Source of the DNA: an uncultured delta proteobacterium
Lineage (GTDB): Bacteria; Desulfobacterota; Binatia; UBA9968
DNA length: 64,000 bases
Assembly: GCA_963727625.1 (NCBI GenBank)
Contig: CAVSHR010000004.1
Location: 1,440,001 to 1,504,000 of the forward strand
Direction of reading: 5' to 3'
Positions 48,115-56,923 of the stretch are shown here, piece by piece. The position numbers and the translations under genes were made by a program. The notes below the pieces were generated by a model, which was given only the letters and a program-made list of their open reading frames with translations, was not told where the DNA came from and searched no databases. Numbering within the stretch: position 1 is the first letter of the stretch; every line of letters starts with the position of its first letter.

Positions 48115-49236
48115 TCAATCGTTGCAAAAGTAATGGCTATTTGTAGGTAACTGGTGTAGAGTCTACTTATGCCAAGGAAAGCAAAGAAGAAGCCGGTAAG
48201 CGTTAGAGCGCAAGTCCGTTATGAGAAGCGGCGCATGGCAGTTGAAGCCCTGAGCAAAGGAGAGCTAGCTTCAGATGTGGCTCGAGTGATGAAGATTCCG
48301 CGAAGAACGCTATTCACTTGGATAGCTCGCTACCGGCATGGAGGCGAGCATGCCTTGCAAGACCGCCAGAAGAGCGGGCGACCTCGAAAGGCCGAGGCGA
48401 AAGTTCTGCAATGGCTTTACGACGCGATTACACTGGGCGACCCGCGGCAATACCAATTGCCATATTGCCTGTGGACGCTGGCGATCGTGCGGCGATTGTT
48501 GAAGAAGGAGCATGGCGTGGAAATGAGCAAGAGTGGAGTGAGCCGCATGCTCAAGCATTTGGGGCTGAGCCCACAGCGGCCAATTTACAGGAGCTACAAG
48601 CGCGATCCCGAGGAGATGAAGAAGTATCTGGATAAGACGTTTCCCGGCTTGCGGGCCAAAGCAGGTCGAATGGGGGCCGCGATCTACTTTGTGGATGAGG
48701 CGTCGGTCCGGTCGGACGCTCATCGCGGAACGACCTGGGGCAAGATCGGGCAGACCCCGGAGGCTGACGACAGTGGCGACCGCTTCAGCATCCGGCTCAT
48801 CAGCGCAGTCAGCCCGCGTGGGGACATGAAATTCAGCAGCTTCACAGGCAGAATGAACGGCATCCGTTTTGTGAACTTTCTCAAGAAGCTCCATGCCGAT
48901 GTCGGCCGCCCCATCATCGTCATCGCGGACAACGCCAGCTACCACACTGGCGGGGTTGTCCAGCGCTACGTGAAGCAGACTCGCGGACAGGTCACTGTGG
49001 GAAGCCTGCCCAGATACTCGCCAGAGCTCAATCCGGACGAACAAGTGTGGAATCATGCGAAGGCAAGACTCGCCAAGCTATTCGTGGCGACTAAGGATGA
49101 GTTCAAAGCGGCTCTATCCTCGATTCTGCTCTCGATTCAAAGGTCGACTGATCTTGTCCTCTCCTTCTTTCAGCTTCCTGACACCCAGTATGCTGCCAAA
49201 GCTGTCTTCTAGTGCATATACTTATGCAATGATTGA
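48115..49236 (+). mobile_element. IS630-family element, copy A (1122 bp)
   Basis: IRs TCAATCGTTGCA / TGCAATGATTGA; TA duplication at 48113-48114 and 49237-49238. Confidence 0.93.
48169..49212 (+). CDS. IS630 family transposase
   Basis: HTH, FVDEAS, ADNASYH and [12 protein letters not shown]. Confidence 0.95.
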
Positions 49237-50010: not shown

Positions 50011-50970
50011 CAGAAGCGTCCGACAGATTTTAGGTCTCTCTGATAAAAAGCTAGGTATTGCGCAGTGTTCATAAAGTATCGAGGTGTTAACGATTTGAAT
50101 TTATATTGTCATTGTCGGCAGTCTTTCGGGACTTTCCCGGGAGGCACCGATGCACACAGGCAATCTGGTATTCGCACAACTCATGGAGTTTGCGCCGTGG
50201 CATACGTTTCGTCGGCTGGTGGCGAAGTATCGTGGCGATTTCAACGTGCGCACCTTCAGCTGCTTGGACCAGTTTCTCTCGATGGCCTTCGCACAGCTAA
50301 CCTACCGCGAAAGCCTGCGCGACATCGAGGCGTGTTTGCGCGCGCAGCCCGCCAAGCTCTATCATATGGGTCTTCGCGGCAAGCTAAGCCGCAGTGCTCT
50401 GGCCGACGCCAACGAGTCGCGCGATTGGCGCATCTTTGCCGAGTACGCTCATGCACTTATCCGCACCGCACGCAGACTGTATTCCCAGGACTCTCTTTCT
50501 GTGGAGCTTGCCGAGACGGTTTACGCTTTGGATGCCACCACCATCGACTTGTGCTTGTCGCTGTTCGCGTGGGCCAAGTTTCGCAAGACCAAAGCGGCGA
50601 TCAAGCTGCACACGCTGCTCGACTTGCGCGGCGCGATTCCCAGCTTCATTCACATCTCCGACGGCAAGCTGCACGATGTCAATGTTCTCGATGTGTTGAT
50701 TGCCGAACCGGGCGCGTTCTACGTCATGGACCGCGGCTACATCGACTTCGAGCGGCTGTACCGCCTCGATCAGGACGCCAGCTTCTTCGTCACTCGTGCC
50801 AAAGCCAACTTCAAATTCAAGCGCGTCTACTCCCGACCGGTCGATCGCCGCACCGGATTGCTCTGCGACCAGGAAGTAAACTTGGTCGTACCGCGTTCTG
50901 TGAAGGCCTATCCCGCGCGCCTGCGCCGGATTCGCTATCGCGATGCCGAAGGACGGCGGTTGGTGTTTTT
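50011..50970 (+). mobile_element. IS4-family element (DUF4372 type), left part only
   Basis: Left end inferred where the kinase frame stops; the transposase is cut at the IS21 end. Confidence 0.7.
50150..50970 (+). pseudogene. IS4 family transposase, 3'-truncated by IS21
   Basis: QLTYRESLRDIE, DATTIDLC, KLHTLLDL and MDRGYIDF; stops just before the expected FLTNN motif. Confidence 0.88.
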
Positions 50971-51480
50971 CCTCAATGGTCACTTCAAAACCGGCCATTA
51001 GTGGTCAGCGCAAAACCGGCCAACGGAGAGCGTGCGAGACAGGGTTGTTTTAACCTTTTGCCTCCTGGTTGGGCAAGTCCATTTTGGTTCTCCAACTGCG
51101 CGGTCCGCATTTGAGAACGTGACCGTGGTGCAGCAAGCGATCGAGCATAGCAGAGACCGCAGCGCTGTCACCGAGTAGCTTTCCCCAATCTTCGACAGGA
51201 CGGTTCGAGGTCATCAGAGTGCTGGCCCGTTCATAGCGGCGCATGACGATCTCCAGGATGTCCTCGGCCGCGGTGGACGGGAGCTTGCGCATGCCCAGAT
51301 CATCGATGATGAGCAGCGGCACGGTGGCCAGAAGTTCCATGTGCTGTTTGCGGGAGCCGTCGATGGTGGCTTCGGCGATCTCGTCAAGCAGGGTATGGGT
51401 CTCACGGTAGAGTACGCGATAGCCCTGTTGGATGGCGGCCAGACCGATGGCCTGAGCCAAGTGGCTCTTGCCGGTGCCGG

Positions 51481-51960
51481 GCGAACCCGTCACACAATGC
51501 TCAGTTTTCAACATCAGTAACAATCCATTATCCCTGGCATCCGCTGTTCGGCACGACGCTGTCAGTGAAACGGTCCCATAGAGGGTCGGACAGAGAAGTA
51601 TCACTTGTTTGCTTGCTCGGCGACAGCACCTGGGCGTTGATTCCGAGCTGGATGACGATGCGGGAGCGGTGTGCCGAATTGAAGATGGTTGAAACACCGG
51701 AGCTTTCGGTTTCAGCCCTGAGGGAAGTCGCGCAGTTTATGGCGTTGTTGAGTTGCCCTACCAATGTGGAGAACATCCGAGCTAAGGGAAATCACAAGGA
51801 GGCTCGGCAGGATGAAAGTCAGCAAGCGGATGCAGTTGGATCTGGTTTGGATCGAGGAAGTCTGCTGGGAGGATCTGCCCGTTCAGACACGGCAACAGGT
51901 CAAGGAGTTGATCGTCAAGTTACTGCGCCAGGCAGCCAGAGAGGGGGTGAAGGAAAATGA
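51481..51960 (+). CDS. DUF5372-like protein; its start codon lies across attP at the element's other end (ATG 54064)
   Basis: Open frame from the left junction, VTIHYPWHPLFG...LIPSWMT; no in-frame ATG/GTG/TTG before 51565. Confidence 0.6.
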   Translation, partial: ANPSHNAQFSTSVTIHYPWHPLFGTTLSVKRSHRGSDREVSLVCLLGDSTWALIPSWMTMRERCAELKMVETPELSVSALREVAQFMALLSCPTNVENIRAKGNHKEARQDESQQADAVGSGLDRGSLLGGSARSDTATGQGVDRQVTAPGSQRGGEGK

Positions 51961-51973
51961 TGCTGATGAATAA
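51812..51973 (+). CDS. Small LSR-associated protein (53 aa)
   Basis: GGAGG upstream; WEDLPVQTRQQVKELIVKLL; its stop overlaps the recombinase start region. Confidence 0.6.
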   Translation: MKVSKRMQLDLVWIEEVCWEDLPVQTRQQVKELIVKLLRQAAREGVKENDADE

Positions 51974-54050
51974 GGAAAAGATTGGACTCCAGCATCTGGG
52001 GCGTGGAGCGAGAGTTTACGTGCGGCAGTCAACGCTGGACCAGGTGCGTCATAACCATGAGAGTCGTCGTCGGCAGTATGAATTAGCAGACCGAGCTCGC
52101 TCATTAGGCTGGAGCGAAGTGGAAGTCATCGATGAGGATCTCGGCAAATCGGCGGCGGGGAGCACCGAGCGCACGGGATTCCAGCGACTGGTGGCAGAGG
52201 TCGGTCTAGGACAAGTGGGAGCGGTGTTTAGCATCGAAGTTTCTCGTCTGGCTCGCAACAACCGAGACTGGTACCAGCTTTTGGATTTGTGTGGACTGAT
52301 GGACACGCTGATCGTGGATGGCGAGGCAATTTACGACACGCGCCAGCTCAACGATCGGCTTCTGTTGGGACTCAAGGGGACCATCAGCGAAGCGGAGCTT
52401 GGCTGGATTCGCCAGAGGGCGCAGGAAGGTCTTTTGGCCAAAGCCCGCCGCGGCGAGCTGATCTTGAGTCTTGCGGTGGGCTATGTCGAAAGCTCCGATG
52501 GTCGTGTGGAAAAGCATCCTGACCAGCGAGTTCAACAGGCGATTGCTCTGGTGTTTCAAAAGTTCTCTGAACTGCGCAGCGTGCGGCAAGTGCTATTGTG
52601 GTTCCGCCACGAAAAAATTCTTCTACCTGTGGCGCTCGATGCCAAAGCAGGAACGACGACCTGGCGGCTGCCGGTTTATAATACAATACTGAAGTTCTTG
52701 CAGAATCCATGCTACGCGGGAGCTTACGTCTTCGGGCGGACCACAGGACGCATCCGTGTTATCGATGGCAAAGCGCACAAGACGGCGGGACATCGTCGCG
52801 ATCGGCAGGATTGGATCGCGTTGCGACGCGATCACCACGAGGGCTATATTGCGTGGGAAACTTACGAAAACAATCAGCGCGCTATTGCCGAGAATGCTCA
52901 GATGAAAGGACTCATGAACCGAGGGGCCGTTAAGCGCGGCCCCAGCCTAATGGCAGGACTATTACTTTGCGGCAAGTGTGGCCGCAAAATCCATGTCGCT
53001 TACTCGGGGAGCCGTGGCCAGGTTCCACGATACTATTGTCGTGGGGCGCTGATTAATCATGGGGAGGGTGGGTGTATCTCGTTCGGTGGCCATCGTGTCG
53101 ACGAAGCGATCGAGCGAGAGGTGCTCCGCGTGCTGAGTCCTGGAGCAATTGAGGCCGCCCTCCATTCTGCAGATCAAGTGGTTGAGGATACCGATGAGAT
53201 CAGCCGGGCGGTCGAACTGGAACTTTCTCAGGCCTGCTACGAGCGAGACCGCGCACAACGACAGTACGACGCGGTAGAACCGGAGAATCGGTTGGTAGCA
53301 GAAACGCTTGAGAACCGTTGGAATCTGGCGCTGGAGCGCGTGCATCAGCTGGAACACCGGCTTGAAGAAATTAAGAGCAAGCAAAAAAATCAAGCCGTGC
53401 CGGATCGCGCCGAGCTGTTAGCTTTGGCTAAGAGTTTTCCTGCTTTGTGGTCTGATTCCGCTACGGATCATCTCATCAAAAAACGAATCGTGCGTCTGGT
53501 TATCTACCAGATTGTTGCGCGTCTGGTGGAGGATAACGTTGAGTTGGTAATCCACTGGCAAGGCGGCAAGCACACGACCCTAAGCGTGCGTAAGAATCAT
53601 ACGGGTCAACACCGTCATTCAACAAGCCGTGAAGTCGTCGACGTCGTCCGCGACCTTGCCCGCTGTCTACCCGATGGCCACATTGCCGGAGTGCTCAATC
53701 GACTGGGTTATCGAACTGGAGCAAACAATAGCTGGACGTTGTCTCGAGTTGTCAGTCTGCGAAGCCATCATAAGATCGCGGTGTTTGACCCCGAAGTCGA
53801 TGGTGTCACATCAATGACACTAGGCAAGGCCGCGGAAACGCTGGGCGTAAGTAATATGACCGTGCGACGCATGATCCAACGAGGCATTTTACCTGCTAAG
53901 CAGCCCGTAACGCATGCTCCTTGGTCGATTGCTCCCGAAACTTTGACAAGTGAACCAGTCAAGCGTGCGGTCCACGCAATCAAGCAAGGACGTGATCTTC
54001 CGCTAACAGCTTCAGACGATCAACTGGCCTTAATCAAATCAAGCACATAG
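51957..54050 (+). CDS. Large serine recombinase (resolvase + recombinase + zinc ribbon + C-terminal HTH)
   Basis: YVRQST (catalytic Ser), EVSRLARN, NPCYAGAYVFG, CGKCG..YYC and TLGKAAETLGVSNMTVRRMI. Confidence 0.93.
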   Translation: MMLMNKEKIGLQHLGRGARVYVRQSTLDQVRHNHESRRRQYELADRARSLGWSEVEVIDEDLGKSAAGSTERTGFQRLVAEVGLGQVGAVFSIEVSRLARNNRDWYQLLDLCGLMDTLIVDGEAIYDTRQLNDRLLLGLKGTISEAELGWIRQRAQEGLLAKARRGELILSLAVGYVESSDGRVEKHPDQRVQQAIALVFQKFSELRSVRQVLLWFRHEKILLPVALDAKAGTTTWRLPVYNTILKFLQNPCYAGAYVFGRTTGRIRVIDGKAHKTAGHRRDRQDWIALRRDHHEGYIAWETYENNQRAIAENAQMKGLMNRGAVKRGPSLMAGLLLCGKCGRKIHVAYSGSRGQVPRYYCRGALINHGEGGCISFGGHRVDEAIEREVLRVLSPGAIEAALHSADQVVEDTDEISRAVELELSQACYERDRAQRQYDAVEPENRLVAETLENRWNLALERVHQLEHRLEEIKSKQKNQAVPDRAELLALAKSFPALWSDSATDHLIKKRIVRLVIYQIVARLVEDNVELVIHWQGGKHTTLSVRKNHTGQHRHSTSREVVDVVRDLARCLPDGHIAGVLNRLGYRTGANNSWTLSRVVSLRSHHKIAVFDPEVDGVTSMTLGKAAETLGVSNMTVRRMIQRGILPAKQPVTHAPWSIAPETLTSEPVKRAVHAIKQGRDLPLTASDDQLALIKSST

Positions 54051-55801
54051 CGAGGTGGGCAGTATGTCACTCAATCGGGGGGCCCTAAAAAAAGCGCGTC
54101 TTCATGTTTGGCGATGAAGCCAGCCGTAGCCAGATCGAAGACCAGAGAGCGATTGAGCTTTTTGTTAAAGGCGAAGTCAAAATTCTCCAGGGTCTTCTGT
54201 GGATCACGAAACTGCGCTTGCTTTTGTCGGCGATCGAGCAGGCGGTTGGTTCTGCGCGAGAGTTCATCGCTGATCAGACAGGAGACCAGATCGATCGGCG
54301 CCATCGATTGGGCTTGGGCCTGGAGTAAGCGGGTCTCCAGCACGGCAGCGATGCCGCCCAGGCGCAGTTGTTTTAGGGCACGGTTAAGTTCAATCAGATT
54401 CATTTTGGTTCTCCTTGGTTTTGAGGTCGATAAGATCGCGATATTCGGACAATTCACGGATCAGCGGATCGACATGGCGTAGAGAGAGCTGGGGGTGGCG
54501 CTCCAGGTAGCGGCGCACGAAGCGGTAGTTCTCGACTCCCAGATCGAGGGCCGCAGCGCAGGCATCGTCGACGGCGGCCACACCATGTTTTTTGGCTAGC
54601 GCCACTACACCCAGAATGCGGCGAATGCCTGTCTCGGCTTCATTGCGAAAGATCGCCTCGCAGAGCTGACCGATGTGGGGACCGGCCTTGGCAGCGCGGG
54701 CCAACAGTTGCACGGTGGAGAGCGGAGCTTTGTTGGAGCGGTCTTCATCGTTGATGCGGTAGTTGCCTGGGAACTGACGCAGGTGTTCGCGCAAGAGCTG
54801 ATAGTTTCTCGGATCGAGGATACGGATATGCAGAGCATCCCATTGGACTTTGACCTGCCGGCCGATCCAGCCCGGTGGTAAGCCGTAGTAAGCACGCTCG
54901 ACTTCGACGCAGCCGTCGAGATGCACCACCCGCTCGCCATACTGGTAATAGCGAAACGGTTCGATCGGCAGTGGCTGCAACAACAGTTTTTCCTCGGCGA
55001 ACATGACTGCCACTTGGCGTTTGGTGGTGCCGTGGATGCGGGTATCGGCCCAGCGTTTCTCCCAGTGATCGAGATAGGCTTGGGCTTCCTCCAAGTTCTC
55101 GAAGCGCTGTCCCTTGAGCGGGGTTTTCTGCGCGTGCCCGACCCCCGACTCGACTTTGCCTTTTCGATCCGGATCTCGGACCCGGCACGGCATGGCCACC
55201 ACGCCGTAGTGTGAAAGGACATCGCGGTAGAGCGGATTAAGTGTCGGATCGTAGATGTCTGCGGCGAGCACGCCCTCGCGCAGATTGTCGAGCACCACCA
55301 CCCGCGGGCTGCCACCGAGCTGGCGAAAGGCTTTCTCGTGGAGCTCGGCCCACGTCTGAGAACTGGAGCGAAAGACCAGCAAGCGGACCGACTTGCGGCT
55401 GTAGCCCAGGGTCATGACGAACAGCCGAGTGCGTCGGTACTTGCCGCTCTTCTCCTCGCGCACCATCGGGCCGGTGCCGTAGTCGACCTGAACTTCTTCG
55501 CCAGGCGATGTCAGAATGATCCCGACGGCTTGAGGTGAGTGAGCGCCACGCAACTTACGGACGAAGCGTTTGACCGTTTGATAGCCGCCGTTATAGCCGT
55601 GGTGATCAACCAGGTCCTGCCAGATGGCCACGGCATTGCGCCCGCGGCTCAGTCCAACTTCGATGCTCTCGCGATACGGTTCACAGGCACTGGCAGTGGG
55701 CGATGGGTTGGCGGGTTGCGGTTCTGGCTTCTCCGGAGTTTGTCCTCCAGAGTCGGTGGTCACCTCATTGGCCGGTTTTGCCGCGGTCGAATTGGCCACT
55801 A

Positions 55802-56923
55802 TCAATCGTTGCAAAAGTAATGGCTATTTGTAGGTAACTGGTGTAGAGTCTACTTATGCCAAGGAAAGCAAAGAAGAAGCCGGTAAGCGTTAGAGCGCAA
55901 GTCCGTTATGAGAAGCGGCGCATGGCAGTTGAAGCCCTGAGCAAAGGAGAGCTAGCTTCAGATGTGGCTCGAGTGATGAAGATTCCGCGAAGAACGCTAT
56001 TCACTTGGATAGCTCGCTACCGGCATGGAGGCGAGCATGCCTTGCAAGACCGCCAGAAGAGCGGGCGACCTCGAAAGGCCGAGGCGAAAGTTCTGCAATG
56101 GCTTTACGACGCGATTACACTGGGCGACCCGCGGCAATACCAATTGCCATATTGCCTGTGGACGCTGGCGATCGTGCGGCGATTGTTGAAGAAGGAGCAT
56201 GGCGTGGAAATGAGCAAGAGTGGAGTGAGCCGCATGCTCAAGCATTTGGGGCTGAGCCCACAGCGGCCAATTTACAGGAGCTACAAGCGCGATCCCGAGG
56301 AGATGAAGAAGTATCTGGATAAGACGTTTCCCGGCTTGCGGGCCAAAGCAGGTCGAATGGGGGCCGCGATCTACTTTGTGGATGAGGCGTCGGTCCGGTC
56401 GGACGCTCATCGCGGAACGACCTGGGGCAAGATCGGGCAGACCCCGGAGGCCGACGACAGTGGCGACCGCTTCAGCATCCGGCTCATCAGCGCAGTCAGC
56501 CCGCGTGGGGACATGAAATTCAGCAGCTTCACAGGCAGAATGAACGGCATCCGTTTTGTGAACTTTCTCAAGAAGCTCCATGCCGATGTCGGCCGCCCCA
56601 TCATCGTCATCGCGGACAACGCCAGCTACCACACTGGCGGGGTTGTCCAGCGCTACGTGAAGCAGACTCGCGGACAGGTCACTGTGGGAAGCCTGCCCAG
56701 ATACTCGCCAGAGCTCAATCCGGACGAACAAGTGTGGAATCATGCGAAGGCAAGACTCGCCAAGCTATTCGTGGCGACTAAGGATGAGTTCAAAGCGGCT
56801 CTATCCTCGATTCTGCTCTCGATTCAAAGGTCGACTGATCTTGTCCTCTCCTTCTTTCAGCTTCCTGACACCCAGTATGCTGCCAAAGCTGTCTTCTAGT
56901 GCATATACTTATGCAATGATTGA
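55802..56923 (+). mobile_element. IS630-family element, copy B
   Basis: Same IRs as copy A; TA duplication at 55800-55801 and 56924-56925; only one difference from copy A seen (48765 T vs 56452 C, synonymous). Confidence 0.93.
55856..56899 (+). CDS. IS630 family transposase
   Basis: Protein identical to 48169-49212. Confidence 0.95.
   Translation: MPRKAKKKPVSVRAQVRYEKRRMAVEALSKGELASDVARVMKIPRRTLFTWIARYRHGGEHALQDRQKSGRPRKAEAKVLQWLYDAITLGDPRQYQLPYCLWTLAIVRRLLKKEHGVEMSKSGVSRMLKHLGLSPQRPIYRSYKRDPEEMKKYLDKTFPGLRAKAGRMGAAIYFVDEASVRSDAHRGTTWGKIGQTPEADDSGDRFSIRLISAVSPRGDMKFSSFTGRMNGIRFVNFLKKLHADVGRPIIVIADNASYHTGGVVQRYVKQTRGQVTVGSLPRYSPELNPDEQVWNHAKARLAKLFVATKDEFKAALSSILLSIQRSTDLVLSFFQLPDTQYAAKAVF

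Follow-up and report, generated by a model that had tools for sequence, protein, structure and literature searches.

A cargo-free large serine recombinase element that probably homes into the Walker A codons of IS21 istB, with relatives in genes of other mobile elements

In a 64,000-nucleotide stretch of DNA from an uncultured delta proteobacterium (contig CAVSHR010000004.1, positions 1,440,001 to 1,504,000; here called the window), the istB gene of an IS21-type insertion sequence (IS) is interrupted by an insert of 2598 bp (51482-54079), the plus strand of which encodes a 697-aa large serine recombinase (LSR). The best explanation, which we hold with considerable confidence, is that the insert is a self-contained, cargo-free integrative element with its own LSR, that it homes into the codons of the IstB Walker A motif, that its operon can be fully translated only from the excised circle, and that it belongs to a superfamily of such elements.

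On the plus strand, the left junction (51481/51482) reads ...GTGCCGGG, continued beyond the junction by CGAACCCGTCAC..., and the right junction (54079/54080) reads ...CTCAATCGGG, continued by GGGCCC.... A GG dinucleotide is present at both junctions (51480-51481 and 54078-54079). A sequence-only reading of the window had claimed that removal of 51482-54079 restores the motif LGPPGTGKS and a full 251-aa IstB. Scripted joining of the flanks by coordinates reproduced this result: on the minus strand, a single frame contains LGPPGTGKS and encodes, from its own ATG, a 251-aa IstB. The interrupted codon is codon 109, which encodes the second proline of the Walker A sequence G-P-P-G-T-G-K-S. The same reading had counted 12 matches in 19 positions between the arms that form a dyad about the GG; on recomputation this count was correct (binomial P = 4.8e-4 for one fixed centre), and the earlier description of the insertion is right in all details. 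The host IS21 and its insert comprise the following parts.

50971 to 51049, no strand assigned: IS21 end on the downstream side of istB; AAAACCGGCCA is found twice here, with an inverted partner at 55768-55781.
51050 to 51481, minus strand: 3' part of istB, from the end of codon 109 to the stop, holding the left-junction (attL) GG copy at 51480-51481; matches Pfam IstB_IS21 profile positions 97-233 (E 5e-41) and lies in the restored frame.
51482 to 54079, plus strand: LSR element, 2598 bp with one core copy counted; single copy; ends set by the relative at locus L002 of genome G061, by metagenome contigs L021 and L022 and by joints skipping 2598 bases.
54080 to 54403, minus strand: 5' part of istB, codons 1-108; matches IstB_IS21 profile positions 3-101 and lies in the restored frame.
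54390 to 55814, minus strand: istA of the host IS21, a 474-aa open reading frame (ORF) with rve and a Mu-transposase C-terminal domain (Mu-transpos_C_2); the start of the restored IstB overlaps its end.

No uninterrupted IS21 was found in the window's own genome by blastn with both flanks or by a PF01695 profile search; together these returned the two istB halves, a DnaA-like match, a degraded N-terminal remnant on C6 and nothing else. Since the LSR element and the IS21 are each present there as a single copy, the test of the boundaries had to come from other genomes. In G061, a metagenome-assembled genome of the same family, locus L002 carries a relative with 89.6% DNA identity to the element over 2534 columns and an LSR 93% identical to the window's. 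Its left end starts at the base matching 51482 (96% identity over 81 bases), and at its right end the likeness stops at the base matching 54078, within the GG pair. Metagenome contigs L021 and L022 have both element ends at the same bases as the window. Contigs of four metagenome runs were compared with window positions 51100-54500, and in three of the four (X1, X4 and X5, from three studies) contigs run from 51477 straight to 54076 and from 51482 straight to 54081, leaving out exactly 2598 bases and sharing 4 bases at the joint. In G051 and G056 an LSR with 58-60% identity interrupts an istB, and intact istB copies (80-84% identical) read ...F/LLGPPGVGKTH...; in the occupied copy the element end stands directly before the shared CC. 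Both the G051/G056 copies and the metagenome joints show the predicted junction at empty sites and not a crossover at the GTCAC repeat, the outcome that the sequence-only reading had named as speaking against it. Judged by these independent copies, the element boundaries are real and fixed to the base. A crossover at the CG that starts the left arm was considered and rejected, as it would add 4 bases to the target site (attB) and break the Walker A frame.

Target choice was read at 26 places with a readable junction, occupied by LSRs of the two subclades that include the window's. At 24 of these the insertion lies in the same codon of the IstB Walker A motif. This was the case for eight of nine window-type copies, for all three in G051, G056 and G067, and for 13 of 14 plasmid places (Sinorhizobium, Bradyrhizobium, Azospirillum, Skermanella, Rhizobium). 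The exception among the window-type copies is the intergenic one in G061, located beside a terminator-like hairpin at a site whose likeness to the IstB site is limited to the upstream half. The exception on plasmids is L068, whose LSR is 49% identical to the window's, belongs to the IstB-targeting plasmid subclade and splits an IS66 transposase gene, TnpC, after ...RKNSLFAGSD. Left out of the counts were L026 and L028 (contig without junction), L104 (contig too short) and the duplicates L070, L071, L072, L074 and L077 (the same places as L062, L067, L066, L068 and L065, respectively). The flank pieces match Pfam IstB_IS21, 16 left flanks represent 10 IstB lineages of less than 70% identity, and in plasmid relatives an annotated istA adjoins the occupied istB. 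Judged by annotation only, three further plasmid LSRs stand beside an 'ATP-binding protein' fragment and/or istA (Paraburkholderia, Mesorhizobium, Bradyrhizobium SK17), one more lies in an IS66, and a Nitrobacter case is unclear; among 40 listed plasmid records, the 13 examined comprised ten IS21, two IS66 and one unclear target. The idea that close homologues would share the istB target was thus borne out by use of the same codon in divergent istB genes, but the specificity is not absolute.

Near-identical copies were found in unlike hosts. At L019/L020 an element 98.96% identical to the window's over 2413 bases lies in a different IS21, the IstA of which is only 26% identical to the window's and the IstB N-terminal part of which ends ...NVLLTGP. 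A Sinorhizobium relative of 2574 nt shows 0-1 mismatches among eight distinct places on three plasmids and in four IstB lineages. These copies are evidence of recent movement.

Two further istB loci were recorded. At L047 (G056:C1:1940723-1941361) another istB copy, with unrelated sequence before it, is cut some 8 nt upstream of the LSR crossover, which might be a scar left by an earlier event or point to a different element. On Skermanella plasmid NZ_CP067421.1 (L063, 447571-452941) one istB is cut twice by two different LSR elements, in the Walker A motif and after ...LLFHTLLD, and an 80-residue middle piece remains.

The candidate recombinase arms lie at the two ends of the element.

51482 to 51500, plus strand: left-end arm P', which also codes for the N-terminal region of ORF-X (see below); kept in relatives as CGRACCCGYCACA; 12/19 dyad.
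54059 to 54079, plus strand: right-end arm P (54059-54077) and the right-junction (attR) GG core copy (54078-54079); assigned from sequence and the dyad match.

The predicted attP is unlike attB (P versus B 6/19, P' versus B' 5/19). Read in the sense of IstB, the flanks before the core consist of hydrophobic codons, GGN and then CCN or GGN, and those after it of N GGN NNN GGN AAR (A/T)CN, so that the conserved target bases are those fixed by the glycine and lysine codons. The core corresponds to codon positions 1 and 2 of the third Walker A residue. The GG crossover proposed earlier applies to the window, but relatives carry GT, CT or GA. The dinucleotide varies with the amino acid at this third place of the motif, with GG on the element strand for proline, GT for threonine and CT or GA for serine. 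This variable core may let one recombinase follow the proline, threonine and serine variants, perhaps through tolerance of mismatched cores. At 13 sites both junctions could be read, and at eight of them the attL and attR core copies are the same. On a contig of run X4 with a loose end at window position 54078, the right end of the element is joined to a flank reading ...ENLLIVGK in the IstB sense, which is probably a further Walker A target with a GT core.

Three genes, ORF-X, ORF-Y and the LSR gene, fill the 2598 bp on the coding strand; they do not include a relaxase, and no search for an oriT was made. Together with a putative translation start at the right end they are arranged as follows.

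51484 to 51960, plus strand: ORF-X, a frame open through the left end with no start codon when integrated (alignment A1); changes by codon position 31/20/41.
51812 to 51973, plus strand: ORF-Y, 53 aa, with AGGAGG before its start; in another frame, overlapping the ORF-X tail and the LSR start.
51957 to 54050, plus strand: large serine recombinase, 697 aa; Pfam Resolvase, Recombinase, Zn_ribbon_recom and HTH_17.
54052 to 54066, plus strand: ribosome-site-like GAGGTG (54052-54057) and ATG (54064-54066), the ATG 13 nt past the LSR stop; in the circle this frame joins ORF-X.

The ORF-X frame, open from 51484, has no start before 51565. Its conserved domain spans approximately 51484-51760 (YPWHPLFG...PSWM), the N-terminal 90 residues are kept in all relatives, the coded peptide is conserved across the left arm, and the distribution of substitutions over codon positions is coding-like. 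ORF-X would be complete only in the excised circle, because the ribosome site and ATG stand at the right end. When the ends were joined in silico, an ORF of 165-185 aa starting from the right-end ATG was obtained in five of five elements from three clades, and a ribosome-site-like motif with ATG is also found at the right ends of other clades. In an hhalign comparison, the ORF-X alignment A1 matched a DUF5372 protein (itself a PF17342 match, E 3.9e-28) with a probability of 82% and E 1e-5, and the ORF-X homologue at L025 scored 17.6 bits against PF17342, below the cut-off of 25; these matches suggest that ORF-X is distantly related to DUF5372. For ORF-Y, changes by codon position counted from 51812 are 15/9/20 in its own frame versus 20/15/9 in the ORF-X frame, and at its place plasmid relatives have a 55-66 aa hypothetical protein annotated by the Prokaryotic Genome Annotation Pipeline (PGAP); a profile search gave no family match. 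On B. barranii plasmid pCC829_2 (L067, 6264-7992), an annotated DUF5372 protein, a helix-turn-helix (HTH) protein and a further recombinase stand in a row, which looks like a related three-gene element type.

By its domain content the enzyme is a large serine recombinase. Pfam matches are PF00239 Resolvase (E 9e-20, residues 20-167), PF07508 Recombinase (E 3e-13), PF13408 Zn_ribbon_recom (E 3e-7) and a C-terminal, excisionase-like HTH_17 (E 3e-5, residues 620-648); DUF4368 is not among them, and the match to TIGR01764 is below cut-off. The motif Y-V-R-Q-S at residues 21-25 is common to the relatives compared, and by analogy we take its serine to be the nucleophile. The best NCBIfam match is XisF with 81.9 bits against a cut-off of 375, and Ccr-type scores are lower still (CcrC 38 against 900; others 37.4 against 700 and 29.7 against 900); with scores this far under the cut-offs, identity as an XisF or Ccr recombinase was rejected. 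A PDB sequence search returned resolvase-domain chains and one 500-residue integrase chain, all aligned over the N-terminal 200 residues of the query.

Related LSRs with this architecture interrupt further genes of mobile elements, again at conserved motifs, and in most cases both gene halves flank the insertion. The types found, with identity to the window's LSR where given, are listed here.

LSR 44-56% identical: splits IS200-like TnpA (Y1_Tnp) in its N-terminal region, between ...VP and K....
2628-bp element, eight copies 99.6-100% identical: splits three kinds of IS3-type OrfB between Y and N of YNxxRPH.
38% LSR type: splits IstA between ...PRDK and (A/G)KVE.
39% LSR type: splits IstB after ...LLFHTLLD, a second site; that istB is also hit at Walker A.
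42% LSR type: splits group II intron-like reverse transcriptases.
39% LSR type from the phylum sample: splits one group II intron-like reverse transcriptase, at another motif; this type is not included in the tree.
One further LSR type: splits a DUF7146 gene, which we take to be toprim-associated.

An apparent end of the 38% type at position 3635 of L083, L087 and L092 was discarded, as the likeness there is that of the target istA and the true end lies about 50 nt further in. A tree was built of 23 LSRs, leaving out five partial ones. The IstB, IS200 and IS3 types form one group (support 87/93) that is unresolved inside, and the IstA, reverse transcriptase and DUF7146 types form the other (98/97). 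At E <=1e-40, LSR matches occurred in 485 of 72,556 plasmid records, all with less than 60% identity and mostly from rhizobia. In the phylum sample such LSRs are rare (4/400 other genomes at E <=1e-100), and three of the four contigs were too short for the target to be read. Five pattern-matching stretches in viral contigs were inspected and none encodes a relative. The earlier proposal of a parasite of transposons is supported in this form: it holds for an LSR superfamily with several kinds of mobile-element target, not for this element alone.

In the mechanism that we propose, the LSR would pair the circular junction (attP: right arm, core, left arm) with the Walker A codons as attB, with a 2-bp crossover on the first two bases of the third codon of the motif. 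The nucleotide pattern of the Walker A codons is fixed, as glycine and lysine codons cannot vary in their first two bases (GGN...GGN AAR). Integration would disable IstB and hence the host IS, and the IS with its plasmid would provide a dispensable, multicopy and horizontally mobile landing site. The attP would split the first gene: ORF-X would have its ribosome site and ATG at the right end and the remainder of its reading frame at the left, where ORF-Y and then the LSR gene follow in overlapping frames. Given this split, the full operon would be translated only from the excised circle, which would favour re-integration and then shut expression down. Every clade of the superfamily would have as its target a conserved motif in a gene of some other mobile element. 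From the sequences compared we infer recombination, its directionality and the requirement of the circle for full translation. In the broadest version, toward which we lean only slightly, there is a large superfamily of cargo-free LSR 'hyperparasites' whose clades read the footprints of catalytic motifs, silence and ride their hosts, and restrict expression by a gene that spans attP.

Among the alternatives, the strongest accepts that the element was once target-specific and regards it as a fossil at this place, trapped and immobile in a dead IS21 nest. In keeping with this, the element is single copy, the occupied IS21 is the sole one of the genome, has itself been hit by an IS630-like insertion and borders on another IS, and a relative in G056 is reduced to a 231-aa LSR fragment. 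We nevertheless consider such a fate unlikely, given that all three reading frames are intact, that a copy with 98.96% identity occupies another IS21 elsewhere, and that empty-site contigs and element contigs occur in the same metagenome runs.

Much less probable is a domesticated excision switch of the XisF or SpoIVCA kind that turns IstB on and off for the IS21 or the host. Excision would indeed restore IstB exactly and XisF is the best NCBIfam match, but its score is far below the cut-off, identical copies occupy several different IS21 elements of one plasmid, sister clades sit in other mobile-element genes and off-target copies exist, all of which argues for a spreading element. A chance landing in istB by a low-specificity serine transposon of the TnpX/TndX kind would explain the intergenic copy in the close relative G061 and the varying core dinucleotides; it is very improbable in view of the recurrence of the same codon in 24 of 26 places and at least ten IstB lineages, and Pfam detected no DUF4368, the domain that Durrant et al. 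(PMC10083194), in the main text, link to multi-targeting LSRs. That the recombinase merely sits inside an IS21 as cargo or resolvase of an IS21-derived transposon, and is not a separate insertion, is hardly credible when istB is split mid-codon with its frame restored by removal, the 2.6-kb LSR unit also occurs in unrelated IS21 elements and outside any IS21, and empty sites exist.

Several points count against a self-contained element that homes into istB and is expressed from its circle. The evidence consists of contigs, in which no circle, excision product or transcript was observed. Two of the 26 places are outside IstB (G061, intergenic; L068, IS66). The window, L021, L023, L024 and L037, with one IS21 lineage in common (96-97% IstB identity), may descend from a single insertion. 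The empty sites may never have been occupied, and the window's genome, having no second IS21, offers no test within itself. For ORF-X, the codon-position signal is modest and the window's own copy has no Pfam or NCBIfam match, and a scan for promoters and terminators remained at chance level (three promoter sites against 1.7 expected). Finally, the attL and attR core copies differ at five of 13 sites (L065, L066, L073, L076 and G061), an outcome that a canonical serine recombinase should not yield; flank exchange between copies or mismatch-tolerant strand exchange could account for it. On S. medicae pSymA, the IS3-targeting copy L091, compared with L082 and L085, has left and right flanks from different IS3-type genes. 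These chimeric flanks show that copies do exchange flanks and rearrange the plasmid, in a clade other than that of the five unequal-core sites.

We found no description in the literature of LSR elements in IstB or other IS genes, in a search that covered articles exclusive of their supplements, and the broader IS-targeting pattern appears undescribed. As far as the published accounts consulted extend, the nearest behaviour is that of the serine-recombinase integrative and mobilizable elements (IMEs) in Tn5252-type integrative and conjugative elements (ICEs) of Firmicutes, which disrupt the conserved genes Maff2-like, SNF2 and traG (Guedon et al. 2017, PMC5704250). According to the portion of that article dealing with them, they share with the window's element an LSR-type integrase and site-specific insertion within a conserved gene of another mobile element, and they carry mobilization, replication and cargo genes and target genes of the ICE conjugation region (PMC5704250). 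Unlike these IMEs as described there, the window's element has three genes and no relaxase, lies in the codons of an IS catalytic motif and is found in Proteobacteria-type hosts. In the main text of Durrant et al. 2022, the commonest LSR target is a Mg-chelatase/ATP-dependent protease gene, and IS21, IstB and insertion sequences have no occurrence in that text (PMC10083194); the target-gene tables of the study may list IstB.

The LSRs of phages and ICEs resemble the window's enzyme in their resolvase, recombinase and zinc-ribbon domains, in an attP unlike attB, in the 2-bp crossover and in often targeting conserved genes. Unlike these integrases, which include those of phiC31, Bxb1, A118 and TP901-1, the window's element has no phage or ICE body, an extra C-terminal HTH_17 and a gene spanning attP. 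In Tn4451/Tn4453 (TnpX) and Tn5397 (TndX), an LSR likewise excises a circle, and the logic of the junction parallels the circle-only start of ORF-X: Lyras and Rood reportedly found in 2000 that the circle junction of Tn4451 forms a promoter for tnpX. TnpX and TndX target a loose GA site and, unlike those transposons, the element in the window rebuilds a coding start, targets DNA that codes for a protein motif, and has no cargo and no DUF4368. The group II intron RmInt1, which homes into ISRm2011-2, and the 'res hunters' Tn5053/Tn402 also land in another mobile element, which offers them a site both safe and mobile; they do so by retrohoming or DDE transposition, and their targets are not catalytic-motif codons. 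Elements of XisF, SpoIVCA and CcrA/B/C similarly interrupt a gene that excision can restore, but, unlike the window's, are directed at one host gene each and do not spread from one IS copy to another. Members of the IS607 family are likewise minimal mobile elements moved by a serine recombinase; their enzyme is small, with an N-terminal HTH and often accompanied by TnpB, whereas the window's is a 697-aa LSR with recombinase and zinc-ribbon domains. Seen against these systems, the window's element is an integrative element of the LSR kind whose lifestyle and gene layout are unusual.

The region holds four nested mobile elements. The terminal repeat region of the IS21 upstream of istA is cut at 55798 by an IS630-like insertion, so that this terminus is truncated. 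The IS630-like element (DDE_3 transposase, 347 aa) is present at window positions 48169-49212 and 55856-56899 and has three copies in the genome. Abutting the other IS21 end is a repeated element (50011-50970) with a 99.9%-identical copy at C4:1097890-1098849. Traces of older IS21 copies in the window's genome are a 153-bp stretch 90% identical to the IS21 end (G000:C4:176355-176506) and the degraded IstB N-terminal remnant with stop codons (G000:C6:158667-159059). The reverse nesting was observed in G061 (L043), where a 4779-nt IS21-like transposon with IstA-like and IstB-like genes and threefold terminal repeats lies inside the LSR element of that genome, between positions matching 51556-51562, and displaces the element's left end.

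The findings suggest that a protein motif can serve a site-specific recombinase as a portable address: wherever IS21 exists, in any host or plasmid, the codon positions that do not vary in G-x-x-G-x-G-K-S/T amount to a DNA site. For annotation, a split 'ATP-binding protein' or pseudo-istB beside a 'recombinase family protein' can be read as one nested insertion. The many natural sets of LSR, attP and attB with known cores, together with several retargeting events, provide material for studying the evolution of LSR specificity, and from the predicted att sites a use as an integrase tool is plausible. For the ecology of mobile elements, the findings indicate that insertion sequences, which are commonly placed lowest in the chain of parasites, have specialised parasites of their own; by inactivating the IS, these LSR parasites may hold back its expansion in bacteria rich in plasmids, for example rhizobia.

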